Assembly: GCA_905197955.1 (NCBI GenBank)
Contig: CAJKAR010000014.1
Span: 15,465 to 79,464, forward strand
Source of the DNA: an uncultured Lentisphaeria bacterium
GTDB taxonomy: Bacteria > Verrucomicrobiota > Lentisphaeria > Victivallales > UBA1829
Reading direction: 5' to 3'
Length of the DNA stretch: 64,000 bases
Part shown: positions 48,724 to 64,000 of the stretch, piece after piece
Numbering within the stretch: position 1 is the first letter of the stretch
How the letters are laid out: each line of letters starts with the position of its first letter
Position numbers and translations under genes: made by a program
Notes under the pieces: generated by a model
What the model saw: the letters and a program-made list of their open reading frames with translations, nothing else
Database searches by the model: none
Told to the model about the DNA's origin: nothing

Positions 48724-51612
48724 CTATTTTGCCGGAGCCAGCATCAGCAGTGGCGATTCCCGAGTCATCCGTTCCGCGGGATGGGTGCCTTCCTTTCCCA
48801 TGAAGGAGAGCTGGGATTCGCGGATTCCTGCATCGTTGTCATTCGCGAGGAGATTGAAATAGACGCCTTTTTGCCGCAGCTCCTCCAGGCTGCTTCCAAA
48901 CAGGGAAAGCGGGAGAAGCAGATGAAAATAATGTGCGTTTTTCGATTGTCTGCCGTGGACACGAATTCCATTCAGAGCTTTTGCAAGATCCATTCCATCC
49001 GGACCCTTCCAGATGTGTTTCAGGAATTTTCCGTCTTCTGTCATGGCAATTCCGAGTTCCCAGTAGTCTTTCTGTCCGGGGAACTGGAGCACGAGTTGAA
49101 TCGAATCGCCTTTCCAGAGTTCTTCCGCGGAAAAATGCTGAACATGGATATCATCGTATAAGCTGATCTGGAAGTGGAGGAGATCTCTGCCAGCCGTTGC
49201 CCCGAAATCGACGGCACAGTCTCTGGAATCATTCCAGAAGAGTTTTCCGTATTCCGGCGTATCCGGGAGCATGCGTCTCACCTGAGAAATGTGACGGAGA
49301 CTTCCGATTCGGGTCATTTTCCCGTATTGGATATAGTAAATCCGGCTGAGAGGAAACTCAATCGGTTCGCCTACTTTCACGCCGTTCTGAAGAATCCGGA
49401 CCTTGAACGTGCTCGACTGCTCCGGACGGAATTCTCTGGAAGCCTGGATCGGAATGCGGAATTCTCCGTTTTTTCCTTTGATTGCCGGCGAAGCGGAAAG
49501 GTGTTTTCCGGGAATAGCTTCCAGAACAACGTTTCCGGATAATTCGCAATGGAAGACGAATTCTTTTTTCTCTCCTGGTCTGATCCGCAGCGGTTCTGTC
49601 GCCGCCAGCACTTCCCGCGGAGCTTTCAGTGCGGCATTGGCCGGAGAAAGACGAAGGGTCTGTCCATTCGAGTCGAGGAGAATCCGGAAGCGTCCCTCTT
49701 CCGGGTGGATTTTTGTGACATTTCCGAAAAGGTCGATCAGTTCAATGCTTTCTGCATTGCTTTCAAACTGTACAAGTGTTTTCTGCTGATCTCTTTTTTC
49801 CAGCCATACGGCGTAAAGTGCGGAATCCGGCGATTCAAATCGCGCGGCAAAACAGTTTTTCCACGACGATTCCTGACGGAGAAAGACGGCATTTCCATAC
49901 AAAGCGGAAAGCATGTGGAAGGTCACGAATCCCGCCCGTGGATTCAGATCGTGCTCCAGCAGGCCGAAGTTGTGTTCTCTGTTCCCTGGATCAAAACCGC
50001 AGTTGCGCAGATTGTACCAGTGGAACAGTTTCAATCCGGCAACCCGGCTGCGGATCACTTTTTGAAAGAGTGTGACAAGCTGTTGATGGTCATTGGTGGT
50101 TCCTTCTCCGGTTTCCTCGGTGCAGAGCGGCTGTTTCAGTTTTTGCGAGTCCAGAAACCGGCGCATGTTAGCAAGATTTTCCGTAATTCTGCTGGTGGGC
50201 ATATAGAGATGAGTGGAAATGAGATCGGCGGATTCCGGAGCCGTTTTTCCCATTTGTTCGAGGACCTCCCGGCTGTATGGTGTAAACAGATGAGAGAATC
50301 CGCCGGCGATGACCGTATAATCCGGATTGACGGATTTCAGAATCCGGTATGCACTCGTCTGCAGTTTCAGGTATTCTTCCGGAGCAAAATCGGAGAAGTG
50401 AGCGATATCCGGTTCATTCCAGACACAGAATTTGCTGATTTTCCCATTGTAGTGCGATGCAAAGCGGCGAATCCATTCTTCAAACAGTTCCAGTTTCGGC
50501 AGATGCAGAGCCGCCTTTGAGTTCGTCCGATGATATCCTGTTGCTTCCGCATATTTCGGCGTTGCTCCGAGCAGGGCAAGAACGCCGATTCCTCTGGCGT
50601 TCAACTGATTGACCAGCCAGTCGGTCCGCTGAAAATCCCAGATATCGCGCTTCGGATTGATCTGGGGCCAGAGCCAGCTCAGACGGATCTCCTCCGCTCC
50701 GCAGAACGAGAGATATTCCAGCATTTTTTCAAGATCGCTTCTGCTGTATCTCTGAAAATGTTCGCAGAACCCGAGTGGAAACCGTTTTCCTGCGGACTTC
50801 TCTTTCCGCTGGAAGGTTCTGATGACGGCCATCCGTTCCCGGTAGGCACGAGTTTTGCCTTCTTCTGTGATGATGCAGCGGAGGGTGTAGACATCCTGAA
50901 GTTCCGGCCGCTTCAACGGAAAACACTTCTTCTCTCCGGGGCCGAGAACAAGATGCATTTTTCCGGACCCCGTCTCTTTTCCCGCACTGTTTGTGAGGCT
51001 GTAGGCGAGCGAAAGTTCTGCTCGTTTTCCGCCGTGGTTTTTGACTTCCAGTTCCGGAATTGTTTTCCGGTTCAGGTCCAGAACCGGAATCCGATGCCCT
51101 GTTTTCAGTCCGGGCATGACTCCGTGTTCAAAAAAGTTGAGGGAATGAAGATTCAGCGTTGATTTTTCTCCTTGTATTTCCAGCATCATGACTCGGAGCG
51201 GCTGTTCCGGGATTGCCTGTTCCGCTTTTCTATTCCGGATGCCGGGATATGCCTGCGCGGAATCAATGATGGCCGAAATGCGGATACGTCCGTTCTCTCT
51301 GGAGGACTCTTTCAGGAGGAATCGGAAAGAACGTCCGTTCCGGTCATGGATCACTGCGGAAAACGCAGGCACTTTGCTATAAGGAGTAATTCCACTGATG
51401 TCCAATCCTATTTCCCCTTTATGAAACTGTGGCAGAAATATCCCGCATGAAGGGAAGCGGATTTGTTCCTTTTTCTGGGATTTCAGCTGGATTTTCCCGT
51501 TGCGGACGTGCGTGATCGTTTCCAGCGGGTCGGAAAAATCGACCAGGGGCTGCCCCTGGCAGAAGAGCGTGAAGGTCAGAAGAAGAGTAAGCAGAATGTT
51601 CTGTCTGCACAT
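48724..51612 (-). CDS. Large secreted glycoside-hydrolase-like protein (GH-A TIM barrel) with C-terminal CBM9/DOMON-like domain; paralogue of 28602..31556
   Basis: Signal peptide MCRQNILLTLLLTFTLFCQG; FCVWNEPDIAHF; the C-terminal ...WKGDSIQLVLQFP...FNLLANDNDAGIRES. Confidence 0.65.
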   Translation of the reverse strand: MCRQNILLTLLLTFTLFCQGQPLVDFSDPLETITHVRNGKIQLKSQKKEQIRFPSCGIFLPQFHKGEIGLDISGITPYSKVPAFSAVIHDRNGRSFRFLLKESSRENGRIRISAIIDSAQAYPGIRNRKAEQAIPEQPLRVMMLEIQGEKSTLNLHSLNFFEHGVMPGLKTGHRIPVLDLNRKTIPELEVKNHGGKRAELSLAYSLTNSAGKETGSGKMHLVLGPGEKKCFPLKRPELQDVYTLRCIITEEGKTRAYRERMAVIRTFQRKEKSAGKRFPLGFCEHFQRYSRSDLEKMLEYLSFCGAEEIRLSWLWPQINPKRDIWDFQRTDWLVNQLNARGIGVLALLGATPKYAEATGYHRTNSKAALHLPKLELFEEWIRRFASHYNGKISKFCVWNEPDIAHFSDFAPEEYLKLQTSAYRILKSVNPDYTVIAGGFSHLFTPYSREVLEQMGKTAPESADLISTHLYMPTSRITENLANMRRFLDSQKLKQPLCTEETGEGTTNDHQQLVTLFQKVIRSRVAGLKLFHWYNLRNCGFDPGNREHNFGLLEHDLNPRAGFVTFHMLSALYGNAVFLRQESSWKNCFAARFESPDSALYAVWLEKRDQQKTLVQFESNAESIELIDLFGNVTKIHPEEGRFRILLDSNGQTLRLSPANAALKAPREVLAATEPLRIRPGEKKEFVFHCELSGNVVLEAIPGKHLSASPAIKGKNGEFRIPIQASREFRPEQSSTFKVRILQNGVKVGEPIEFPLSRIYYIQYGKMTRIGSLRHISQVRRMLPDTPEYGKLFWNDSRDCAVDFGATAGRDLLHFQISLYDDIHVQHFSAEELWKGDSIQLVLQFPGQKDYWELGIAMTEDGKFLKHIWKGPDGMDLAKALNGIRVHGRQSKNAHYFHLLLPLSLFGSSLEELRQKGVYFNLLANDNDAGIRESQLSFMGKEGTHPAERMTRESPLLMLAPAK

Positions 51613-51635: not shown

Positions 51636-52391
51636 TTAGAATGGATTGATCTTATCCAGACTTTCTGAAACCAGAAAGAGCAGGCGGGTGGGCCAGGGAT
51701 AGAGCTGACTCCGGTTCAGCGCACTGACATGGCCGTCGAGAAATGCGATGCTGGCACAGTTCATGTGCCCGAGAAAAATACCGGCGGTTCCGCTTTCCGC
51801 AAAGTTGGAAAGTTCAAACTGATAACATCCGATTCCCTGGTATGTGCTGGCTTTGGAAAAAACGGTATCGGCAAGAACCGCCAGCTTGCCGGGTTGTTTT
51901 ACCTGTTTTGTCGTGAATCCCCAGCAGACATCCGGGAGATTGAAGTAGAAATTGTTTCCGAAATAGGGTTCTCTTCCCGCTGCGTTTCTGTAATTGCCCA
52001 TGCCGTAGCAATAACGGTAGATTTCCGATTTTATATCGGTTCCTGTATAGGGCTTTGTGCTCGGACAGATGGCGTTTTTCCGGTCCAGATATTTGTCCTG
52101 CATGATTTTGACCCAGGAAGCTCCCTTTTTTTTGTCAAACAGAATAATCTGTCCATCGTTGTCGGCATCATAGAAGAGACAGCTCTGCATGGTTTGTCTC
52201 AATCCGGAAAGGCACTGTATTCCCACCCCCTTCTGACGGGCTTTATTCAGTGCCGGAAGCAGAAGTGCCGCAAGAATTGCAATAATTGCAATAACGACAA
52301 GAAGTTCTATTAATGTAAAATGACTGCCGGTGATTCCGCGCTGCTTCTCCTGCCTTTTGCGCTCTGAGATTGTTTTTGATGTGATCTGCAT
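51636..52391 (-). CDS. Prepilin-type N-terminal cleavage/methylation domain protein, H-X9-DG family
   Basis: [32 protein letters not shown]; the H-X9-DG motif is HMNCASIAFLDG. ATG 52391 (AGGAGG upstream) is preferred to 52484, which would overlap the LacI gene. Confidence 0.85.
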   Translation of the reverse strand: MQITSKTISERKRQEKQRGITGSHFTLIELLVVIAIIAILAALLLPALNKARQKGVGIQCLSGLRQTMQSCLFYDADNDGQIILFDKKKGASWVKIMQDKYLDRKNAICPSTKPYTGTDIKSEIYRYCYGMGNYRNAAGREPYFGNNFYFNLPDVCWGFTTKQVKQPGKLAVLADTVFSKASTYQGIGCYQFELSNFAESGTAGIFLGHMNCASIAFLDGHVSALNRSQLYPWPTRLLFLVSESLDKINPF

Positions 52392-52428
52392 AATGTTCCT
52401 CCTGTTGGAAATTTGAAAAGCAAATGGG

Positions 52429-53469
52429 TTAGATTCCGCATGTTTTGCCGGATGTTGTTTCTGAATCTGGCTTTGGCTGCGCATCTTTGATTTCGGATGG
52501 GAAAAGATAACGGGCCGGAGCTGTTTTATTTTCCGTCTTTCCGGTCAGGATATCCAGTACGGCTTCTCCCATTTTTTCGAACGCCTGAACAACGGTGCCG
52601 ACCGGATAGTAAAGTTGACGCGCCAGAGTATTGCCGAATCCGAAGATCCGGCAGGAATCGGGGATCCGGATTCCGAATCGCAGAGCGGTAATCAGAACCT
52701 GGGCGGCGCGGTTGTCGTCGAAACAGATGAATGCCGTCGGGCGTTCTTCTTCCGTGAGGTGGAACCAGGATTCCAGATCCGCAAAATGTTCCACGGGATC
52801 ATGATGAGCGGAGATCCAGTGAGAATTGAGTTTCAGTCCGAATTCCTGGAGGCCGGCGGCGACGCCGTTGCAGCGTTCGACACTGTAACGGATATCATCT
52901 TCCGGCTTGACGACTGCAATTCGGCGATGTCCTTCCGCGAAGAGTTTCCGGACGATTTCTCTTGTGGCCGCCTGGTCGTCGGAATAGACCAGCGGAAAAT
53001 CATTCCGGCAACTGTCCTCGATATAGCAGAGAGCGATGTCGCGTGCTTTGCAGAAGTTTCCAATTTCCTCCTGAAGAAGCGGTGAAAAGGCAAAACAGGC
53101 GGCATAGCGGATATTGTACTTGATAAGTTCCTGCTGAACAAGTTCCAGATTGGACAGATTGCAGATTCGGACATTATATCCATGCTGTGCCGTTGCATTC
53201 AGAAGTCCGAGCAGGATTTCATTTGCCGCTGCGCCCCGGACTGCACTGTGACTGAATTCCAGCAGCAATGCAATTGTTTTGGAAAGTCCGGTCCGGATTT
53301 CCGCTGCAGCCTCGTTCCGGCTGTAACCGGATTCGATGACCGCTTGAAGAATTTTTGCCCGTGTTTCCGGTCGCAGAGCTTTTGCATGAGCGTGGTTGTT
53401 CAAGACCTGAGAGACCGCCGCTGTGCTGACTCCAGCTTTTTTTGCAATATCTGCAAGCGTTATGCGCAT
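52429..53469 (-). CDS. LacI-family transcriptional regulator
   Basis: MRITLADIAKKAGVSTAAVSQVLNN is a LacI HTH, followed by a PBP effector domain. Confidence 0.88.
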   Translation of the reverse strand: MRITLADIAKKAGVSTAAVSQVLNNHAHAKALRPETRAKILQAVIESGYSRNEAAAEIRTGLSKTIALLLEFSHSAVRGAAANEILLGLLNATAQHGYNVRICNLSNLELVQQELIKYNIRYAACFAFSPLLQEEIGNFCKARDIALCYIEDSCRNDFPLVYSDDQAATREIVRKLFAEGHRRIAVVKPEDDIRYSVERCNGVAAGLQEFGLKLNSHWISAHHDPVEHFADLESWFHLTEEERPTAFICFDDNRAAQVLITALRFGIRIPDSCRIFGFGNTLARQLYYPVGTVVQAFEKMGEAVLDILTGKTENKTAPARYLFPSEIKDAQPKPDSETTSGKTCGI

Positions 53470-55180: not shown

Positions 55181-55322
55181 AAAGGGAAAACGTCTCTGCC
55201 AATGGTACAACTCCTTTTCTTGAAAAGAAAATTATCACTTGTTTTTCTTTTAAGAACAGGATATGTTACCGCCGCAGTCGCTGTGTGGAAAAGAAACTCA
55301 TAACACGAAAAAGGAGGACCCT

Positions 55323-55640
55323 ATGGCTTGGACACAAGCAGAAATCGAAACATGTATCGAAAACTGCAAGAAGAAAGCTGCTGTTGATGCGGATTTCCGT
55401 AAGAAACTGCTCGCAGATCCCGTCGCTGCAGTAAAAGAGATCTCCGGCAAGGAGGTGCCGGCAGGATTCAAAATTAAAGTTCTCGAAAATGATCCGAGCT
55501 ACGATGCAACCTTCGTTCTTCCGCCGCTCGTTTCGGGAAATATTTCCGACAGCGAACTGGATGATGTTACCGCCGGAATCTGCGGTTTGCTGAGTTGCGG
55601 AATGAAGGCCTGCGCCACAGAGGGAAATGGATCAAAATAA
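55323..55640 (+). CDS. NHLP (nitrile hydratase-like leader peptide) family RiPP precursor 1; predicted core ICGLLSCGMKACATEGNGSK
   Basis: 105 aa; the leader ...KKAAVDADFRKKLLADPVAAVKEISGKEVPAGFKIKVLENDPSYDATFVLPPLVSGNISDSELDDVTAG matches the NHLP pattern and ends in a double-glycine-type AG. AGGAGG lies 6 nt upstream of ATG 55323; the track ORF's 5' extension was rejected. Confidence 0.88.
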   Translation: MAWTQAEIETCIENCKKKAAVDADFRKKLLADPVAAVKEISGKEVPAGFKIKVLENDPSYDATFVLPPLVSGNISDSELDDVTAGICGLLSCGMKACATEGNGSK

Positions 55641-55642
55641 TT

Positions 55643-55679
55643 ACAGAAACATCCGGTTTCGCAGAGACCCTGTTTCTGT
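55643..55679 (+). other. Stem-loop between precursor genes 1 and 2
   Basis: ACAGAAACA (55643-55651) pairs with TGTTTCTGT (55671-55679). The 19-nt loop can itself form a short helix. No U-tract follows. Confidence 0.5.
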
Positions 55680-55737: not shown

Positions 55738-56055
55738 ATGACCTGGACACAGACAGAAATTGAAGCATGCATCGTCAACTGCAAGAAAAAAGCCGCCGTC
55801 GATGCTGATTTCCGTAAAAAACTGCTGGCGGATCCCGCTGCGGCAGTAAAAGAAATTTCTGGCAAGGAGATTCCAGCAGGATTCAAGATCAAAATCCTCG
55901 AAAACGATCCGGGCTATGATGCCACTTTCGTTCTCCCTCCGCTCGTTTCGGGAAATCTCTCCGATAAAGAACTCGATGAAGTGGCAGCCGGCATCTGCGG
56001 TTTGCAGACCTGCGCCATGGATGCGTGCGGCGTCGCCGGGAACGGATCAAAATAA
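55738..56055 (+). CDS. NHLP family RiPP precursor 2; predicted core ICGLQTCAMDACGVAGNGSK
   Basis: 105 aa; it is a paralogue of precursor 1 with the leader conserved and the core diverged. AAGGAG lies 8 nt upstream. Confidence 0.88.
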   Translation: MTWTQTEIEACIVNCKKKAAVDADFRKKLLADPAAAVKEISGKEIPAGFKIKILENDPGYDATFVLPPLVSGNLSDKELDEVAAGICGLQTCAMDACGVAGNGSK

Positions 56056-56106: not shown

Positions 56107-56418
56107 ATGGCTTGGACTCAACAGGAAATCAATGAGTGCATCGCAGCCTGCAAACAAAAGGCTGCAACAGATGCTCAGTTTCGTCAGAAACTGCTGAAGG
56201 ATCCGGGAGAGGCAATCCGGGAAATTTCCGGCAAGGAAATCCCGGCAGGATTCCGGATTAAAGTGCTGGAAAGCGATCCGAATTATGATGCGACATTCGT
56301 GCTGCCTCCTCCGATCTCCGGCAATCTTTCTGACAAGGATCTGGATGGTGTAACTGGCGGCAGTCTCGTCTGCCCGGTCGAGGTCTGTGCTGCAAACGCC
56401 TGCGGTTGGGATAAGTAA
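56107..56418 (+). CDS. NHLP family RiPP precursor 3; predicted core SLVCPVEVCAANACGWDK
   Basis: 103 aa; the leader ...DAQFRQKLLKDPGEAIREISGKEIPAGFRIKVLESDPNYDATFVLPPPISGNLSDKDLDGVTGG ends in GG. AGGAG lies upstream. Confidence 0.88.
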   Translation: MAWTQQEINECIAACKQKAATDAQFRQKLLKDPGEAIREISGKEIPAGFRIKVLESDPNYDATFVLPPPISGNLSDKDLDGVTGGSLVCPVEVCAANACGWDK

Positions 56419-56443: not shown

Positions 56444-57739
56444 ATGATGTGGTCAAGATATAATCGGGTATTCCATTCGCAAAAACGGGGATGGCTCCTC
56501 TACAACGCCCTCTCCAACACGTTTCTTGCGCTGCCGGATTCGTTCGGCAAAACGTTCGAAGCTCTGCGCGCCGGGGAGGAGTTCCTCTGTGAGGATCCCG
56601 GTATGACATTGCAGCTGATTGCGGCAAAAGCGCTTGTCGATCCCGGCGAAGATGATCGGCTGCGCGATGTGCTCCGAATGAAACGGCGTATGGCGGATTT
56701 CAGCGAACGCATTTTGCTGCTGACCATTGCTCCGACCCGGAACTGCAACTTCGCATGTCCTTACTGCTTCGAGGAAAACCGCGCAGGGATCAACATGAGC
56801 CGCGAAACGGAAGAGGAGCTGGTTCGCTTTGCCGAACGCTTCCAGCCGGGACAGCTGTTCGGCGTGACCTGGTTCGGAGGAGAACCCCTGCTGCGCTTTG
56901 AACAGATCCGGCGCCTCTCTGAACGCTTCCAGTCCATGGATTTCAAACACTACCGGGCCTCCCTGATCACCAACGGATATCTGCTGGATGCGGACAAGGC
57001 GGCACGGCTGGATGAACTGGCGATCCAGGAGGTGCAGATCACTCTTGACGGTCCTGAAGAAGTCCACGACCGCCGCAGAACCCTTGTCTCCGGGGGGCCG
57101 ACCTTCCGGAAGATTCTGGGAAATATTGATACTCTGTTTGCCTCCGCATGGACGGGACATCTGCAGCTCAGGGTCAATGTGGACCGGACCAATGCGGAAG
57201 ATTACCATCGGATCTACGAATTTCTGTACAGCAGATATCCGGAAAAGAGGGATCGTCTGCATGTCTATCCGGGAATTGTGCATGCGATGGGCAAGGAGAA
57301 TCCGGATACCGTCTGTCTTTTCAATGTTGACGAGGCCGCGGATTTCCAGATCGAACAGTTCCGCCGGTATGGGGTGCGGAACCAGACGTTCTATCCTCTC
57401 CGTAAATTGTTCAACTGCATCGCGGCAAGACGGAACGGATATGTCGTCGGCCCGGGAGGAGAACTTTACAAGTGCTGGAACGACATCGGAATCGAAAAGC
57501 GAATCGTTGGCTATGTGGATCCCCGGAAAATGTGGAACAACGAATTGCTCGCAGAGTGGCTGGAAGGACAGAATGCTCTGAATGATCCGGAGTGTCTTGC
57601 ATGTGGGCTGATGCCGATCTGTGACGGAGGCTGTCCGGCTCAGCGCCGGGAAAAGGCTCCTCACTGTTCCCGTTACCGGAATCGCCTGCCGGAACTGCTG
57701 GAGGCTCATTATGACTCTGTGCGGAATGAAAAAAATTGA
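56444..57739 (+). CDS. Radical SAM / SPASM-domain peptide maturase
   Basis: The CX3CX2C motif is TRNCNFACPYCFE. The full seven-Cys SPASM pattern is CIAARRNGYVVGPGGELYKC (CX13GX4C), CLACGLMPICDGGC (CX2CX5CX3C) and a trailing C in KAPHC. About 105 aa precede the cluster motif. ATG 56444 has GGAGG upstream. Confidence 0.85.
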   Translation: MMWSRYNRVFHSQKRGWLLYNALSNTFLALPDSFGKTFEALRAGEEFLCEDPGMTLQLIAAKALVDPGEDDRLRDVLRMKRRMADFSERILLLTIAPTRNCNFACPYCFEENRAGINMSRETEEELVRFAERFQPGQLFGVTWFGGEPLLRFEQIRRLSERFQSMDFKHYRASLITNGYLLDADKAARLDELAIQEVQITLDGPEEVHDRRRTLVSGGPTFRKILGNIDTLFASAWTGHLQLRVNVDRTNAEDYHRIYEFLYSRYPEKRDRLHVYPGIVHAMGKENPDTVCLFNVDEAADFQIEQFRRYGVRNQTFYPLRKLFNCIAARRNGYVVGPGGELYKCWNDIGIEKRIVGYVDPRKMWNNELLAEWLEGQNALNDPECLACGLMPICDGGCPAQRREKAPHCSRYRNRLPELLEAHYDSVRNEKN

Positions 57740-58688
57740 AATCGAGCCGCTTCATCTTTTCAATCTGAAGCACCATCGGTCATTTTTCACGGCGCGTCAG
57801 CAGGCGCTGTTCGGCGATTCCATGCCGGGCGGAAAGCATCTGTTTTTCGGCGCGCGCTGCGGGGAGGGGGCCGCTGGAGTGATCTGGGGGGGGCCGGACA
57901 GGGATCCGACGGGGATGTTTCTGTTTCATCTCTATGTGGCGGAGGAGTTCCGGCGCTGCGGAATTGGACGGATTTTGCTGGAAAAACTCTGTGCAGCTGC
58001 GTCGGAGGAGGGGTTCCGGAAAGTTTATGTGCGTTTCCGTCGCAGGAACAGTCAGGAAAGCGCGTTGTGGTGCCTGCTGAAGGGTTTTCCCGGTCCCTGT
58101 GTCCGACTGGAGACGGTTTTCCGGCTGGAGCTTCCCTCGGGAGCCGAACGGGAGCTGCGGGTGCGGACCCGGACCGGCCGCTGGCAGATACTGCCGCTGG
58201 AAACGGTTGTCGCAGGGCTCGGAGAGGAAAAACGGATGGAAATGGTGGAACGGGAACGCCGTTTCCTGAAAGGACTCGAACATCTGTCGCTGACGGATCC
58301 GGCGGAATGGAGAAAATTTCTCCGTGGAGATGTCTTTCTTGCGCCGTTTGGCGGCGAGTCCGGACTGCCCCGGTTCGGACGGGCATGCGTGGAACGGGAA
58401 TCGGGCCGTCTCGCCGGATGGATTTCCGGAGAGATCAAAGAGGGGGAACTGCATGTGCGCCGCGCTTTTGTCGAACCGGAGTTCCGGGGCGCGGAAGTCA
58501 TGGCGCTGTTGGCAGAAGAAGTCTATGCGTGGATGCACCGGACCGGCGGAACGGCCCGGTGGGAAGTGAAATATTGGAATCAGGTGTTTCAGCGGGGATG
58601 TCTCCGCTACGCCCGACGGTTGAAAATAGGCGAATCCATCGAGGATTGCGTCAAAATAATCCCTGCAGGAACAGGAGAGGAAAAATGA
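57711..58688 (+). CDS. Two-domain GNAT-family acyltransferase (N-terminal domain intact, C-terminal domain degenerate)
   Basis: LFHLYVAEEFRRCGIGRILLEKL is GNAT motif A (R-x-x-G-x-G). The second half, LHVRRAFVEPEFRGAEVMALLAEEV, is GNAT-like but lacks GxG. GGAGG lies 6 nt upstream of ATG 57711, and the gene overlaps the rSAM gene by 29 nt. Confidence 0.7.
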   Translation: MTLCGMKKIEIEPLHLFNLKHHRSFFTARQQALFGDSMPGGKHLFFGARCGEGAAGVIWGGPDRDPTGMFLFHLYVAEEFRRCGIGRILLEKLCAAASEEGFRKVYVRFRRRNSQESALWCLLKGFPGPCVRLETVFRLELPSGAERELRVRTRTGRWQILPLETVVAGLGEEKRMEMVERERRFLKGLEHLSLTDPAEWRKFLRGDVFLAPFGGESGLPRFGRACVERESGRLAGWISGEIKEGELHVRRAFVEPEFRGAEVMALLAEEVYAWMHRTGGTARWEVKYWNQVFQRGCLRYARRLKIGESIEDCVKIIPAGTGEEK

Positions 58689-59026
58689 ACAAAATCGAAG
58701 AAAATCTGGTAAAATGGAAAGAGATTGAAGCAAAGGTTATTGCGCGCGCTCTGACGGATGAGGCCTTCCGCACACGTCTGGAACAGGATCCCCGTGAAAC
58801 CATCGAAACCGAGCTCCAGTGCAAAATCAGCGGCGATGTGACATTCAAAGTCCGCGAAGAAGAAAATCCCGGAGAAATGACGATCCTTCTGCCGAAACTC
58901 CCCAAAAAAGAGACGGGGGAACAGCTTTCCGATCGCGAAATCGACGATATCGTTGCGGCTGGAAATATCGGAATTTCGGTCGGTATTGTCACCACGGATA
59001 TCGTCCTGGTCAAGGGAATCGTCTGA
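58685..59026 (+). CDS. NHLP family RiPP precursor 4 (proteusin-like); predicted core NIGISVGIVTTDIVLVKGIV
   Basis: 113 aa; the leader ...ARALTDEAFRTRLEQDPRETIETELQCKISGDVTFKVREEENPGEMTILLPKLPKKETGEQLSDREIDDIVAAG is followed by a Cys-free beta-branched hydrophobic core. The ATG overlaps the GNAT stop (ATGA at 58685-58688). It is embedded in the longer track ORF 58067..59026. Confidence 0.8.
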   Translation: MNKIEENLVKWKEIEAKVIARALTDEAFRTRLEQDPRETIETELQCKISGDVTFKVREEENPGEMTILLPKLPKKETGEQLSDREIDDIVAAGNIGISVGIVTTDIVLVKGIV

Positions 59027-59046: not shown

Positions 59047-60393
59047 TTGAACTTCCCCGATTACAAGCGTTTTTTGGAATTCTACATGGGCGACGGCTCC
59101 TTCCGAGAGCGTTTTGATCGTGCTCCTGCCGCCGCTCTGCAGGATGCGGATCTGCATCCGGAGATGCCCCTGGAGTTCCTGCAGGCGGTGGCCGCCGGCT
59201 GCCGCAGCCGTGATTTCCGGCAGGTGACGGAGCATTTTCCTGAGGTGCTGGCAGTTCTGCGTCATTTTGCGGAAGAGCAGGAGGAGTGCAATCCGTTCAC
59301 CGTGCGCTGTCGGAAAGAGTGTTCTTCCCCCAATGCGCGTTTTGAAGCATGGCGGGAACGGAAACGGCAGGGGAACCGGGCAGTTCTCCAGCCGCTGTAT
59401 TTTGACCGGGCGTTTAATATCGCGGCGGCTTTCGAGCTTGGAGTCGGATGTTCCGGACAGTGCCGGTTCTGCTGTTTTGACGCGCCGCCTCTGCGCGAGA
59501 ATTTCCGGTACACTCCGGAAAATCGTGCATTATGGCGGGATATCCTCTCCCTTTTCCGGGATCGTTTTGGCGGTCGGGCTGGAGCGGCGGCTCTCTACTG
59601 GGCTACCGATCCTTTTGACAATCCGGATCTGGAACTGTTTTATGCGGATTTTTATGAAACGAATCAGGTCTGGCCGCCGATCACCTCGCGCTGGCCGCTT
59701 CGAGATCCCGCTCGAACTCGCCGTTTTGCGGAAGAAGGAAGGAAACATGGACAGCCATGCTGCCGTTTTTCCATCACGCAACGCGGAGAGCTGCGGAGAT
59801 TCTTCCAGGAGTTTTCCGCAGCGGAAACGATGGATTGGAGTCTTGTTCTGAACAATCCGGAATCGCTGAACTGCTATTCAATCAGCGGACGCGCACGGGA
59901 AAGGGATCCCGAAACGCCGGAAAAGTATCAGGAGGGAACGACAAGCTGCTGTCTTTCCGGATTTCTGGTGAATCTCTGCCGCAGAACGGTTGCGCTGGTA
60001 TCGCCCTGTGAACCGGGGGAGGCGGATCCGTTTGGATATCATCAGTGGGATGCGGCGGAGTTCCGCGATGCGGGGGAACTGGAGCAGGTGCTTGAAAAAA
60101 TGCAGAAGGAGTTCTTTCTCCAGGGACCGGAGGAACTGGCACGTCTGCGACTTTCTCCGGAATGGAACTTTACGATTTCGGGGGGAAGGGCGGAATTTGT
60201 CTCCCGCTATCTGGTACGCCGTTTTGAGGTGTCGCCGTCGGAACAGAATCTGCTGGAAAAGTTGAAAGCCGGAATTTCCCGGCAGGAATTTGAACAGGAG
60301 TTCGGCGGAATGCTTTCGCTGTTCGGGAACGTGCATGCACTGCTCGACTCCCTGTGGAAATTCGGAATGTTGTCGGAGGAGGAAGCATGTTGA
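59047..60393 (+). CDS. Radical SAM-like protein of unassigned subfamily
   Basis: 448 aa. GVGCSGQCRFCCFD contains CX3CX2C with the usual aromatic before the third Cys. Further Cys pairs are QPCCRF and TSCCLSGFLVNLC...SPC. The TTG start at 59047 lies 7 nt after AAGGAG; ATG 59086 is an alternative. Confidence 0.55.
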   Translation: MNFPDYKRFLEFYMGDGSFRERFDRAPAAALQDADLHPEMPLEFLQAVAAGCRSRDFRQVTEHFPEVLAVLRHFAEEQEECNPFTVRCRKECSSPNARFEAWRERKRQGNRAVLQPLYFDRAFNIAAAFELGVGCSGQCRFCCFDAPPLRENFRYTPENRALWRDILSLFRDRFGGRAGAAALYWATDPFDNPDLELFYADFYETNQVWPPITSRWPLRDPARTRRFAEEGRKHGQPCCRFSITQRGELRRFFQEFSAAETMDWSLVLNNPESLNCYSISGRARERDPETPEKYQEGTTSCCLSGFLVNLCRRTVALVSPCEPGEADPFGYHQWDAAEFRDAGELEQVLEKMQKEFFLQGPEELARLRLSPEWNFTISGGRAEFVSRYLVRRFEVSPSEQNLLEKLKAGISRQEFEQEFGGMLSLFGNVHALLDSLWKFGMLSEEEAC

Positions 60394-62321
60394 ATCCCGT
60401 TGATATCACGCTGGTGAATATGCCGTTTGCGATGCCCCTGGTGGCTCCGCTGGGAATGAATGTGCTGTGCGGAGCGCTGCGCAAAGCCGGATTGAGGGTC
60501 CGCTGCCGTTTTGCCAATGTTGATTTTGCGGAACGGGTTCCGGAGGAGCTGTATGACTATCCGGCATCGAACGGATTGAATGTGGATGTGATGCTTGGAG
60601 ACTGGCTGTTTTCGGAATCGCTGTTCGGGGCGGATCCGGAACGGGACCGTCGCTTTCTGGAGATGTTGAAGGAGGAAAACGAGCATGACCGGCTGGTCTG
60701 GAACCGTCGTTACCGGTCGCTGGACGATCTTCTGCGCGATCTGCCGCTGCTGAAACGCGAAGCGGTCCGCTGCGTGGAGAAAACCGCGGCAGAACTGGCG
60801 GATGGTTCCACCCGGATTGTCGGGTGTTCAAGTACTTTTTTCCAGCGTCTGGCCTCTCTGGCTCTTCTGAAGCGGGTTCGGGAGCTGAATCCGGAAGTCG
60901 TGACCTTTCTGGGCGGATCCGATTGCGAAAGCGAAGCCGGGATGGAGGCGGTTCTCCGGTTTCCGTTTCTCGACTATGTGTTCTGCGGAGAAGGGGATCT
61001 GACCGTGCCGGAAATGGCTCTCCGGATTGTGCGGAACGAGCGTTCCGCCGCCCTGCCGTTCGGTGTGTTCGACCGGGCAAAGGCGGAACGGGGAATCCCG
61101 GAAGTTGCATGTGTCCCGGGGGAACTGATCGCGGAACCCGACCCCGCGGACTATTATGAACGAATGAACGGGAGCCGTTTGAACCGGGCATCGGTCCGGA
61201 AATATTTTCTGGAGAGTTCGCGCGGCTGCTGGAAGGGGCAGAAGCAGCACTGCAGTTTCTGCGGACTGAACGGAGGACGAATCGCCTACCGGCGCAAAGA
61301 TCCCGAGCGTGTTCTGGCGGAACTGCGCCGAGGTTACCGGGAATTCGGCTGCCGGCTTTTCCTGACTTCCGATACCGTGCTGGATCTGAACCGGATGCGC
61401 GCTCCGCTCCGCACCTTCGGAGAGGAAACGCCCGATACGGTCATCAGCTTTGAAACGGTTTCAACCCTGACCGAAGAGCAGGTGCGGTTTCTTGCCGACA
61501 GCGGTGTGATGGTTATTCAGAGCGGAATCGAAACGCTTCATCCGAATCATATCCGCCTTCTGAACAAAGGCAACGATACGCTGTCAAGCATTGCACTCCT
61601 GAAATTCACACTGGAGAACCGCATTCAAGTTCTCTGGAACATGCTCAGCGGCATACCGGGCGATTCTCCCGAAGAATATCGCTGGGTGAAGGAACTGGTT
61701 CCGAAAATCATTCATCTGCCGGGACCGAACTGGGGGGCGATCCGCTTCGACCGCTTCAGTTTGTACTGGAAGGAACCGGAACGTTTCAATCTCCGTCTGG
61801 AACCGATGAAAGGATATCGCATTCTTATGCCGGAAGGTTCGGTTTCACTGGATCGCTGGGCGCTCTTCTACGACAATCGGAACCCCGGAGCCTGCACGCC
61901 GCAGAAGGAGATCGCCGATGTGCGCAAAACAGTCGATGAATGGTATCATGATTCTCATCCGGCGAAATATCATCTGGAATTTGCCGAACCGGATCTTCTC
62001 CGTGATACCCGTCCCTGCGCGGCGGTTCCCGAATACCGGCTCAGCCGGGCGGAACAGGCGATCCTCCAGGCGGCACGCTCTCCGGCAGATCGGACCGCTG
62101 TGGAAGCTGCGACTGGAAATTCTATGAAAATCATTGAAAAATTGAAGGAATACGGTTATCTTATTGAAGTGGAAAATCGACTTCTGGCGCTTCCGCTGAT
62201 TCCTCCTTCCGCGGAACGGATCGCGAAAAGCAGACTGCGCTACCGGAGTCTTTTCCGGGGACATACACCACCTGCCGCGGCCGTGCCGGAGGATACTCCG
62301 CTGATCAGGGTCGGCTCTTAA
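60387..62321 (+). CDS. Cobalamin-binding-domain radical SAM enzyme (RiPP-maturation C-methyltransferase-like, class B)
   Basis: 644 aa. ITLVNMPFAMPLVAPLGMNVLCGALRKAGL is the typical B12-domain start of this family. ESSRGCWKGQKQHCSFCGLNG has CX7CX2C spacing, as I recall for the TIGR03975-type family. GGAGGAGG lies upstream of ATG 60387, which overlaps the previous stop by 7 nt. Confidence 0.75.
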   Translation: MLNPVDITLVNMPFAMPLVAPLGMNVLCGALRKAGLRVRCRFANVDFAERVPEELYDYPASNGLNVDVMLGDWLFSESLFGADPERDRRFLEMLKEENEHDRLVWNRRYRSLDDLLRDLPLLKREAVRCVEKTAAELADGSTRIVGCSSTFFQRLASLALLKRVRELNPEVVTFLGGSDCESEAGMEAVLRFPFLDYVFCGEGDLTVPEMALRIVRNERSAALPFGVFDRAKAERGIPEVACVPGELIAEPDPADYYERMNGSRLNRASVRKYFLESSRGCWKGQKQHCSFCGLNGGRIAYRRKDPERVLAELRRGYREFGCRLFLTSDTVLDLNRMRAPLRTFGEETPDTVISFETVSTLTEEQVRFLADSGVMVIQSGIETLHPNHIRLLNKGNDTLSSIALLKFTLENRIQVLWNMLSGIPGDSPEEYRWVKELVPKIIHLPGPNWGAIRFDRFSLYWKEPERFNLRLEPMKGYRILMPEGSVSLDRWALFYDNRNPGACTPQKEIADVRKTVDEWYHDSHPAKYHLEFAEPDLLRDTRPCAAVPEYRLSRAEQAILQAARSPADRTAVEAATGNSMKIIEKLKEYGYLIEVENRLLALPLIPPSAERIAKSRLRYRSLFRGHTPPAAAVPEDTPLIRVGS

Positions 62322-62333
62322 ACAGGATATAGA

Positions 62334-63665
62334 ATGAACAGAAATCTTTTCCGGAAAAATGCAATGCTCAAAGCGGCATCGCCATTTGAGTTGAATCGTC
62401 AGCTTTCGATTTTCAACGGGCGCGAAGCGCTGGCACTTCTGGTGCTGGGAATCACGGTGATTGCTCTGCTGGCATGGGGAATTCTCGGCGTGATTTACGA
62501 ACGGGTCAGCGGAAGCGGCATTGTGATGCTGCAAAGTCAGTTCGATACAATTCAGGCGCCCGCCGGAGGAGTGCTGATCTCCTTTGACATTGAAACGGGA
62601 GATTTTGTCAAGCGCGGGCAGATGGTCGGACGGCTCTATTCGTTTGCCGATCTGGAAAATCTGAGGGAGAACTTTCAGAAATTGAAAATGCTCCAGAGCA
62701 ATCTGGAGGAGGTGCGCCGTCATACCGAAGGTCTCCAGAAAGGAAACCGGACCCATATCCGGAACATGACCGGAGTGCTGGATGAAACAGTCAAACGGCT
62801 CGACAAGGAACTGGAATGGCTCGGGGAGTTCGTGAAAAAGGGGAAAGCCCTTGCCGAACGCGGCGCAATCTCGCAGAAACAGTGGCACGAGTATCAGGAA
62901 CAGTATCATACCAAGCTCAAAAACCGTTCGGATTACCTGCTCAAAAAACTGGAGGAAAGCAATTCGTTTTCCGAGACGGAATTCACTCTTGCCAAAGAGG
63001 TTATGTCGATGGAGGCCGAAGTGAAGTCGGCTTTGTTCGAAGTCGAGCAGCTCCGCAACAAACTGGAATACAATACACGGATCGTGAGCACCCATTCCGG
63101 AACCGTGACCAGCGTTAACTATACGCCGGGCTCCATTGTGACGGCGGAAGCGACGCTCGCCAGCCTGATCGACCTCGATGACGAAACCGATGAAACCTGG
63201 GAACTTTATGCCTATTTTTCCGTTGCCGACAGTAAAAAGATCCGTCCCGGAATGAGCGCGATCATAACACCTTCCTCGGTCAAAGCCGAACGCGACGGTT
63301 CCATTCGCGGCACCGTCACCCATGTCGGCACTTACATCCTTCCGGTGGAATCCATTGACCGCACATTTCGCAATGCTGCGTTTGCCCAGTATCTGCTCAA
63401 GGAATGTGCGAATATGCCGGTCGAGGTCCGCATTCTGATGTCCCGGGATCGGAACTCCCCGAACGGTTTCCGCTGGACCTCCGGTTCTGGACCGGATATC
63501 AGAATCACTGCGGGAACTCTCTGTTCCGCCAGTGTGGTCGTGGAGAAGGATCCGCCGCTTGAATTGGTTTTTTCCGGACTGCGCAAATTCATGTTCGGCA
63601 GGGGCGTCATGGAAGAGTTCCAGTTGAAAAATGCCCGGACCGGCGCAGGAGGATCCGCCGAATGA
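62334..63665 (+). CDS. HlyD-family membrane-fusion / bacteriocin secretion adaptor protein
   Basis: 443 aa. It has an N-terminal TM (ALALLVLGITVIALLAWGILGVI), a lipoyl-like IQAPAGGVLISFDIETGDFVKRGQMVGRL, a long coiled-coil and a C-terminal beta-barrel. Confidence 0.8.
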   Translation: MNRNLFRKNAMLKAASPFELNRQLSIFNGREALALLVLGITVIALLAWGILGVIYERVSGSGIVMLQSQFDTIQAPAGGVLISFDIETGDFVKRGQMVGRLYSFADLENLRENFQKLKMLQSNLEEVRRHTEGLQKGNRTHIRNMTGVLDETVKRLDKELEWLGEFVKKGKALAERGAISQKQWHEYQEQYHTKLKNRSDYLLKKLEESNSFSETEFTLAKEVMSMEAEVKSALFEVEQLRNKLEYNTRIVSTHSGTVTSVNYTPGSIVTAEATLASLIDLDDETDETWELYAYFSVADSKKIRPGMSAIITPSSVKAERDGSIRGTVTHVGTYILPVESIDRTFRNAAFAQYLLKECANMPVEVRILMSRDRNSPNGFRWTSGSGPDIRITAGTLCSASVVVEKDPPLELVFSGLRKFMFGRGVMEEFQLKNARTGAGGSAE

Positions 63666-64000
63666 TCTTCCGGAAGAAGCGGGTTGACTGCCCGATGGTT
63701 CTGCAGATGGAGGCCGCTGAATGCGGCGCCGCTGCGCTGTCAATGGTGATGTCGTACCACGGAGTGATTGTTCCGCTGGAACGTCTCCGTGATGAATGCG
63801 GCGTTTCCCGCGACGGCAGCAAGGCGTCCAGTCTGCTCAAAGTCGCCCGCAGCTACCATTTCAAAGCGCAGGGGTATCGGGAGGAGGAACTCGATGCGCT
63901 GAATCATCACGCTCTGCCCATGATCCTGTTCTGGAATTTCAATCATTTTGTGGTTTACACGGGGCGCAAAGGCAGAAAGTTCTGCATCAATGATCCGGCG
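63662..64000 (+). CDS. Peptidase-C39-domain bacteriocin ABC exporter, 3'-partial (runs off window end)
   Basis: MIFRKKRVDCPMVLQMEAAECGAAALSMVMSYHG... contains the catalytic Q...C of C39, and ...NFNHFVVY contains the catalytic His. The ATG overlaps the HlyD stop (ATGA). The frame stays open to base 64000, and the ORF is not in the ORF track because it has no stop. Confidence 0.85.
   Translation, partial: MIFRKKRVDCPMVLQMEAAECGAAALSMVMSYHGVIVPLERLRDECGVSRDGSKASSLLKVARSYHFKAQGYREEELDALNHHALPMILFWNFNHFVVYTGRKGRKFCINDPA

Follow-up and report, generated by a model that had tools for sequence, protein, structure and literature searches.

A predicted proteusin-type precursor with its epimerase and C-methyltransferase genes within a larger RiPP operon of a Victivallales bacterium

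To our knowledge, few proteusins that undergo both radical-SAM epimerisation and C-methylation have been characterised, and their sources are sponge symbionts, cyanobacteria and a small number of proteobacteria. We analysed a 64,000-nucleotide stretch of contig CAJKAR010000014.1 (assembly GCA_905197955.1, positions 15,465 to 79,464 of the forward strand; hereafter the window) from an uncultured Lentisphaeria bacterium of the order Victivallales, which carries an operon for peptides made on ribosomes and modified after translation (RiPPs) with four NHLP-leader precursors. Precursors 1-3 have Cys-containing cores and are followed by a radical SAM/SPASM gene and a GNAT gene, while precursor 4 lies in mid-operon, directly ahead of two further radical SAM genes. 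We conclude that precursor 4 is probably a genuine, translated NHLP-leader precursor and the dedicated substrate of a canonical proteusin module within this larger RiPP operon. The features of the module are as follows.

58685..59026, plus strand: precursor 4, predicted NHLP-leader RiPP precursor of proteusin type, 113 aa (TIGR03793, conservation, purifying selection)
58685..58960, plus strand: leader of precursor 4, about residues 1-92
58961..59023, plus strand: predicted core of precursor 4, GNIGISVGIVTTDIVLVKGIV, about residues 93-113 (94-113 if cut after G93)
59047..60393, plus strand: predicted PoyD-family radical-SAM peptide epimerase, 448 aa (TIGR04517, homologue annotation, Cys pattern)
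60387..62321, plus strand: predicted B12-binding radical-SAM peptide C-methyltransferase of the PoyB/PoyC type (TIGR03975, PF04055, Cx7Cx2C)

The clusters for the polytheonamides (poy, 'Candidatus Entotheonella') and aeronamide A (aer, Microvirgula aerodenitrificans) share with this module an NHLP-leader precursor, a PoyD/AerD-family epimerase, a PoyB/C/AerC-type B12 C-methyltransferase with a Cx7Cx2C motif, and a Cys-free core rich in Val, Ile, Gly and Thr. The first-pass annotation of the window, made from the letters of the sequence, had likened the core composition to polytheonamide/landornamide-type proteusins, and this likeness held. The poy and aer cores are longer, with ~46-49 aa (49 residues in polytheonamide; PMC9060474) compared to 20-21 aa here. 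Unlike poy and aer, the window cluster has no Asn ladder, no PoyE/AerE N-methyltransferase, no LanM-like dehydratase and no hydroxylase. It also has no dedicated serine or cysteine protease, and a C39-ABC exporter would remove the leader instead. A further difference is that the core here contains a conserved Asp and a mostly conserved Lys.

The cyanobacterial short-core proteusin systems (OspD/landornamide, AvpD, PlpD) are similar in that a short-core NHLP precursor adjoins a PoyD-family epimerase. The epimerase in the window is ~30% identical to its cyanobacterial relatives, and the AvpD source organism, Trichormus variabilis ATCC 29413, supplies one of the nearest relatives outside the clade. 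Several cyanobacterial loci found in our scan (for example L032, L035, L051 and L052) combine cores of 15-16 aa with a B12 radical SAM gene. Since short-core clusters with both an epimerase and a B12 enzyme thus occur in cyanobacteria, the module itself is not a new variant. Unlike the OspD, AvpD and PlpD systems, the window cluster comes from a member of the Lentisphaerota living in the gut, has no arginase or lanthionine synthetase, and is joined to a SPASM/Cys-peptide module and a clade-specific tandem GNAT. The sequence-level defining features of a proteusin that we tested were present or nearly so, which assigns the precursor 4 system, as predicted, to the proteusin type.

Precursor 4 is a real, conserved gene and no chance open reading frame (ORF), because it is called by gene callers, its frame is conserved and its non-synonymous divergence is low. 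The ORF runs from an ATG at 58685-87 to a TGA at 59024-26, with AGGAGAGG at 58673-58680 upstream of the start codon. In the mechanical ORF list it is the tail of a same-frame GTG ORF at 58067..59026 (319 aa), the first 206 codons of which are an out-of-frame overlap of the GNAT gene. The first-pass annotation had proposed a 113-aa precursor hidden within this longer ORF, and both its placement and its sequence proved correct. Gene callers annotate exactly the 113-aa product, and 175 blocks of the assembly collection contain the identical protein. The six contigs displayed for it all come from ENA metagenome assemblies, and one carries the title human gut metagenome. Five lineages at 65-70% identity retain the gene's frame, start and length. 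In pairwise codon comparisons among these five lineages, synonymous sites were near saturation (proportion of synonymous differences, pS, 0.5-0.99), and the corresponding non-synonymous divergence (pN) was low, with 0.19-0.28 in the leader and 0.08-0.21 in the core; the close pair of related loci L007 and L009 fell below these ranges. Precursor 4 is under strong purifying selection, which is strongest in the core. This selection, together with the conserved gene order around the gene, indirectly supports the view that the peptide is made and modified.

The stop codon of the GNAT gene shares its letters with the start codon of precursor 4 (ATGA, 58685-58688). This overlap, which had been interpreted as translational coupling, is present in the window and is not kept in relatives, where the gaps between the two genes are 1-72 nt. 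A scan of the operon for promoters and terminators found terminator-like sites at background level (13 versus 12.0 expected), and there is therefore no sign of an internal transcription unit. Among metagenome variants of precursor 4, P0007, P0008 and P0009 are 137 aa long and continue after ...GIAVGIV with an unrelated 34-residue tail, which looks like the result of a frameshift, be it through an error of assembly or through natural inactivation.

Precursor 4 exceeded the curated cutoff of the NHLP leader model TIGR03793 (50.9) with a score of 53.3 bits (E 1.8e-14), in line with the clear NHLP leader that the first-pass annotation had described, and it matched PF02979 (NHase_alpha) and TIGR01323 more weakly. 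That annotation had drawn the core as the 20-aa stretch NIGISVGIVTTDIVLVKGIV, Cys-free and about 70% Val/Ile/Gly/Thr. The composition stood, with no Cys and 15/20 residues (75%) being Val, Ile, Gly or Thr, and the core also has no aromatic residue; the boundary probably lies one residue earlier, at A92|G93. The predicted core is thus probably a 21-mer (GNIGISVG…), because the position of the leader model, the alignment with a distant relative and the spacing of hydrophobic residues agree on a cut after A92. Position 77 of the NHLP model corresponds to the last leader residue, G85, in precursors 1-3. In precursor 4 the match stops at model position 74 (residue 89), and position 77 therefore extrapolates to A92. 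The distant relative, P0094 (39% identity), was found by an exhaustive profile search of 1.84 billion representatives; its leader ends in the canonical ...LQSIAGG, followed by GNVGVSVAAVTSDIVIFTAIV, and its AGG aligns with the VAA of precursor 4. A cut after A92 also puts hydrophobic residues at -4, -7 and -12 (I89, I86 and L81), matching precursors 1-3. The VAAG junction is invariant across the complete precursor 4 sequences aligned (AGG-G in P0094) and lines up with both model position 77 and the cleavage site in precursors 1-3. A cut after G93, giving a 20-aa core, is a possible alternative.

The core is the best conserved part of precursor 4. It is almost invariant across the five lineages, and 12 of its 21 residues are identical in P0094 with conservative changes at the remainder. 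RiPPs do not usually have a core more conserved than the leader, and this conservation suggests that the structure or the target is under tight constraint. The Asp of the core is conserved, while its Lys (K110, the fourth-last residue, ...VLVKGIV) is replaced by Thr in P0017 (locus L012) and in P0094. The contigs of P0094, P0103 and P0211, at 0.5-1.1 kb, do not extend far enough to reveal the enzymes. Upstream of P0094, the gene at 3..698 of L102 encodes a protein with a ...VVLDIDLDYFCC... motif, has no Pfam match and is not a GNAT. A separate member of the representative library, P0093 (406 aa), carries four NHLP-like domains in tandem ahead of a Gly/Tyr-rich tail (GGLYGGLYGGYGGLGLYGGYSSYYGYYGG...), an unusual multi-leader architecture for a precursor.

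The gene 20 nt downstream of precursor 4 starts with a TTG at 59047, preceded by GAAGGAG; some gene callers use an ATG at 59086. Its sole NCBIfam match was TIGR04517 (rSAM_PoyD), with 305.8 bits over model positions 4-445 of 446. Several of its nearest relatives outside the clade carry a RiPP amino-acid epimerase annotation, and one of these nearest relatives comes from Trichormus (Anabaena) variabilis ATCC 29413 (32% identity over 98% of the query). In an alignment of 12 sequences (the window protein and eleven relatives), the only invariant Cys residues were C135/C139/C142 (CxxxCxxC) and C302. A single Cys, Cys372, is strictly conserved among about 70 homologues of PoyD and is the proposed H-atom donor (PMC8326336). 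We infer that C302 is the counterpart of Cys372, PoyD itself being absent from the 12-sequence alignment. A sequence search of the PDB gave no match. Together these features mark 59047..60393 as a predicted, diverged PoyD-family radical-SAM epimerase, as the first-pass annotation had supposed for the gene directly downstream of the precursor. The N-terminus of this protein (59047..59130, YKRFLEFYMGDGSFRERFDRAP; family consensus KRFxExWxADPxFRxxFxxxP) is similar to the motif in the NHLP leaders of its predicted substrates (ARALTDEAFRTRLEQDP), and alignment showed that the Victivallales epimerases do not have the 35-50-residue N-terminal extension of their cyanobacterial homologues.

The next gene was also proposed earlier, as a B12-type C-methyltransferase, and this assignment is well matched by the models. 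The protein scored 618.3 bits against TIGR03975 (RiPP maturation radical SAM C-methyltransferase; cutoff 281.85) over model positions 1-606 of 606 and contains PF04055; PF02310 reached 28.2 bits at residues 142-220, below its cutoff of 32.1. Its motif CWKGQKQHCSFC is of the Cx7Cx2C form and is common to 68/70 homologues from the fetched loci. PoyC has a 'unique Cx7Cx2C' motif and methylates Ile and Val side chains (PMC11285071). A PDB sequence search with this protein found no relative. The mechanical ORF starts at a GTG at 60354, and gene callers start the gene at the ATG at 60387. We assign 60387..62321, by model and motif, to the TIGR03975 B12/radical-SAM peptide C-methyltransferases.

Whether these two enzymes belong to precursor 4 has to be judged against the other part of the operon, which consists of the following genes.

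55323..55640, plus strand: precursor 1, NHLP leader and 3-Cys core ICGLLSCGMKACATEGNGSK (TIGR03793, 51.6 bits)
55738..56055, plus strand: precursor 2, NHLP leader and 3-Cys core ICGLQTCAMDACGVAGNGSK (TIGR03793, 58.3 bits)
56107..56418, plus strand: precursor 3, NHLP leader and 3-Cys core SLVCPVEVCAANACGWDK (TIGR03793, 55.8 bits)
56444..57739, plus strand: radical SAM/SPASM peptide maturase (PF04055, TIGR04085 SPASM)
57711..58688, plus strand: tandem GNAT acyl/acetyltransferase, 325 aa (PF00583, two stretches)

The order precursor 4, epimerase, B12 radical SAM enzyme, HlyD adaptor and two ATP-binding cassette (ABC) transporter genes is conserved in the five lineages, with precursor identities of 65-70% and epimerase identities of 44-57%, and is the same in Victivallis vadensis DSM 14823, where the epimerase is 73% identical. 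The window can therefore be placed in a related member of the Victivallaceae (phylum Lentisphaerota). The full gene order of the operon is kept in each related locus that is long enough (L007, L009, L011, L012 and L013-L015). Because the complete order is conserved everywhere, synteny alone cannot split the operon, and the wider epimerase family was therefore used. A scan of one genome per species yielded 77 epimerase loci from other phyla, including cyanobacteria, Actinomycetota, Acidobacteriota and Vulcanimicrobiota. Within 8 kb of these foreign epimerases, a homologue of the B12 radical SAM enzyme was found in 40 of the 77 loci, a homologue of the SPASM enzyme in one and this GNAT in none. 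We further examined 47 NHLP ORFs with a recognisable leader end, which came from 29 of the 77 loci. Their cores contained no Cys in 35 cases, one Cys in ten and two in two, and none had at least three. Ranked among these 47 cores, the core of precursor 4 stood at the 89th percentile for Val/Ile/Gly/Thr/Ala/Leu content and at the 98th for Val/Ile/Thr, and the three Cys-type cores stood at the 9th-38th percentiles.

Across these neighbourhoods, an epimerase, a B12 methyltransferase and a hydrophobic, Cys-free NHLP core form a recurrent cross-phylum module. Of the four peptides in the operon, only precursor 4, directly ahead of the epimerase, fits this module. The recurrence of the module and the composition of the cores therefore support a reading with two modules, in which Cys peptides go with the SPASM enzyme and perhaps the GNAT, and a hydrophobic peptide goes with the epimerase and the C-methyltransferase. 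The pairing of precursor 4 with these last two enzymes is our prediction from gene content and core type. The first-pass annotation had likened the Cys-free, beta-branched core to cores that radical-SAM epimerases process. The 47 foreign cores bear this out, and the three Cys-type cores do not fit this pattern. Its broader proposal, two sub-pathways sharing one leader family and one exporter, was right about the modules and the exporter. Its 'one leader family' holds only as far as all four leaders are of the NHLP type: leaders 1-3 hardly differ from one another, and leader 4 has 37% identity to leader 2 in a gapped, partial alignment.

Several observations weigh against this pairing or against canonical chemistry in the module. 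The epimerase score of 305.8 bits is below the NCBIfam cutoff of 325, and its identity to relatives from outside the clade is no more than 27-37%; the chemistry of the epimerase may therefore be altered. The core, at 20-21 aa and with an Asp and a Lys, is much shorter than those of the channel-forming proteusins, and the Asn ladder, N-methyltransferase and dehydratase of those systems are missing. We found no natural 'knock-out' that separates the two modules, which occur together in every contig long enough to judge. Leaders associated with the foreign epimerases are equally similar to leader 4 and to the Cys-type leaders (21.8 versus 21.8 bits, 45/89, Wilcoxon p 0.52), and the test of leader/enzyme co-phylogeny had no power to assign substrates.

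The last two observations, together with the NHLP leader on all four precursors and the tolerance of the aeronamide maturases for foreign cores (PMC11285071, review), would also fit a scheme of shared enzymes, in which the epimerase and/or the C-methyltransferase act also, or mainly, on the Cys-type peptides and all four peptides pass all enzymes. We consider this unlikely. The absence of cores with at least three Cys from the 47 foreign epimerase-associated cores and the single SPASM homologue among 77 foreign loci both argue against it, as does the position of precursor 4 directly upstream of the epimerase in every lineage. Moreover, near-identical leaders 1-3 with leader 4 at 37% identity are the pattern expected of orthogonal recognition.

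The Cys-type precursors examined (~18 sequences from eight lineages, including L007, L009 and L011-L015) contain exactly three conserved Cys in a C-x3/4-C-x4-C arrangement, and every one of them ends in Lys (...GSK, ...ADK, ...WDK, ...SPK). The best matches of the SPASM enzyme, all below cutoff, were maturases of Cys-rich peptides (Clo7bot, TIGR04463, FlmE/OhkG and CefB), and the enzyme is the presumed partner of the three Cys-type precursors. A SPASM-type cross-link on precursor 4 was considered and is unlikely, its core having neither Cys nor an aromatic residue. Precursor 1 has an alternative upstream ATG (55263..55640) that would give 125 aa, and gene callers differ between assemblies in choosing 125 or 105 aa; a weak hairpin and a T-rich stretch lie just 3' of its stop codon (55655..55669).

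The AlphaFold model of the GNAT had a pLDDT (predicted local distance difference test) of 77, and its best PDB matches in Foldseek were tandem GNATs with template-modelling (TM) scores of 0.34-0.42, indicating a generic tandem-GNAT fold that gives no hint of the substrate. A homologue search and a metagenome scan with a GNAT alignment found no homologues outside the clade, with matches only within Victivallales. The SPASM/Cys-peptide/GNAT part is a lineage-specific addition to the operon. RiPP-associated GNATs fatty-acylate Lys or Orn at the core termini of NHLP and Nif11 peptides (PMC8784127). The invariant C-terminal Lys beside a GNAT gene suggests acylation or acetylation of this Lys in the Cys-type peptides. 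We tentatively place the GNAT with the Cys-type peptides rather than with precursor 4, because the core Lys of precursor 4 and the ATGA overlap are not conserved, all Cys-type precursors end in Lys, and RiPP GNATs acylate terminal Lys or Orn.

The selidamides (kamptornamide, phaeornamide, nostolysamide) resemble the window operon in having a GNAT gene inside an NHLP RiPP operon and a Lys at core termini, which here is C-terminal in the Cys-type precursors and K110 in precursor 4. Unlike the selidamide clusters, the window operon has no LanM or arginase, and its GNAT has tandem domains and no detectable homologues outside the clade, and is at most a possible member of the group of the selidamide GNATs KspN, PhaN and NpuN. 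A selidamide-type lipopeptide, in which the upstream GNAT would acylate K110 as the defining modification of precursor 4, would explain the ATGA overlap and the single Lys near the C-terminus of the core and would agree with the known activity of RiPP GNATs on NHLP and Nif11 peptides. It is nevertheless very doubtful, given that this Lys has become Thr in P0017, whose locus retains the GNAT, and in P0094, that the overlap is not conserved and the upstream gene of P0094 is not a GNAT, that every Cys-type precursor examined carries the C-terminal Lys instead, and that the GNAT has no detectable homologues outside the clade. That precursor 4 is a non-exported accessory, for example an NHLP protein acting as decoy or regulator, or an immunity factor anchored in the membrane by its hydrophobic tail, might account for a core more conserved than its leader, for a tail about half a membrane span in length and for the lack of an evident immunity gene, and is highly improbable in view of its invariant double-Gly-type junction, in register with precursors 1-3 and model position 77, and of its place directly ahead of two core-modifying enzymes whose families elsewhere partner NHLP precursors with similar tails.

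Both modules are followed by a single set of export genes (TIGR03794, TIGR03796 and TIGR03797), which agrees with the one exporter for the locus that the first-pass annotation had postulated. The features concerned are as follows.

62334..63665, plus strand: HlyD-type secretion adaptor of the NHLP bacteriocin system (TIGR03794, 464 bits, cutoff 156)
63662..64000, plus strand: NHLP export ABC transporter with peptidase, N-terminus with the C39 domain, cut by the window end (TIGR03796, 171 bits for the fragment)
Beyond the window end (L001 19869.., L007 19837.., L009 13939.., L011 12538..): Peripla_BP_6/ANF_receptor-type gene

The second ABC subunit (TIGR03797) also lies beyond the window end. 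In the identical locus L001, where both ABC genes are full-length, TIGR03796 scored 1016 bits (cutoff 853) and TIGR03797 scored 891 bits (cutoff 709). In every lineage, including those with a different upstream flank, the Peripla_BP_6/ANF_receptor-type gene comes directly 3' of the second ABC gene, and it may be part of the cluster, for example in sensing or regulation. No dedicated immunity gene was evident in the operon. Just upstream of its precursors, the most divergent lineage (L007, 5166..5790) has two small ORFs of strongly hydrophobic composition (98 and 91 aa) along with a 370-aa ORF. These have no counterpart in the window and may encode immunity proteins.

With precursor 4 as the dedicated substrate of the epimerase and the C-methyltransferase, the pathway would run as follows. 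The structured NHLP leader would present the Cys-free core to the enzymes. The epimerase would abstract C-alpha hydrogens and return a hydrogen from C302, converting several L-residues to D-residues; PoyD itself acts on every second position, moving in the C- to N-terminal direction (PMC8326336). The C-methyltransferase would add methyl groups to unactivated side-chain carbons, most likely of Val and Ile. The C39 peptidase domain of the NHLP ABC transporter would then cut the leader at a double-Gly-type site, VAA|G or AAG|N, and the transporter and the HlyD adaptor would export a hydrophobic peptide of ~21 residues. The three Cys-type precursors would be processed by the SPASM enzyme, and probably the GNAT too, before leaving through the same exporter. 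The modification sites, the order of the steps and the cleavage site of precursor 4 are predictions read from the sequence, and a membrane-active, possibly beta-helical product is plausible from the composition of the core.

Gramicidin A is a 15-mer made by a non-ribosomal peptide synthetase, with alternating D/L residues, an N-formyl group and an ethanolamine cap. It resembles the core of precursor 4 in being a short, uncharged-to-weakly-charged peptide rich in Val, Ile and Gly. If the core were epimerised in alternation, a beta-helix of its length could span a membrane only as a dimer. The core differs from gramicidin A in its mid-core Asp and Lys, which would be unusual for such a channel, and in that its alternating pattern is hypothetical; a gramicidin-like dimeric beta-helix is thus a speculation drawn by analogy. 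Carried to its full extent, it would make the mature product a minimal ribosomal gramicidin-like ~21-mer with alternating D/L residues and tert-Leu-type C-methylations, which forms dimeric beta-helical ion channels and is secreted by a prevalent human-gut Lentisphaerota commensal, together with thioether-bridged, Lys-acylated partners, as a multi-component weapon. We regard this as quite improbable.

In the wider window, a protein with a prepilin-type N-terminal cleavage/methylation motif, typical of PVC-group bacteria, is encoded at 51636..52484 (minus strand). It adjoins a GH39-like 962-aa protein (48724..51612) and a LacI-type regulator (52429..53469), and none of the three is connected with the RiPP cluster.

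In their 2010 description of the NHLP family, Haft et al. gave three NHLPs and the transporters for the V. vadensis cluster and mentioned neither a fourth precursor nor the epimerase/methyltransferase pair (PMC2887384). A literature search combining Victivallis with proteusin, RiPP or radical SAM found nothing beyond that mention in the searchable library. The fourth precursor is easily missed, as the listing of three illustrates. With this locus, proteusin machinery occurs in the Lentisphaerota, in a gut bacterium of Victivallis type. The locus is a genome-mining lead within a known natural-product class rather than a new kind of system. Being unusually short and unusually conserved, its predicted substrate offers a compact target to heterologous expression or total synthesis. 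With two leader sub-types, two enzyme sets and one exporter, the hybrid operon lends itself to testing how NHLP leaders guide peptides to the right maturases.

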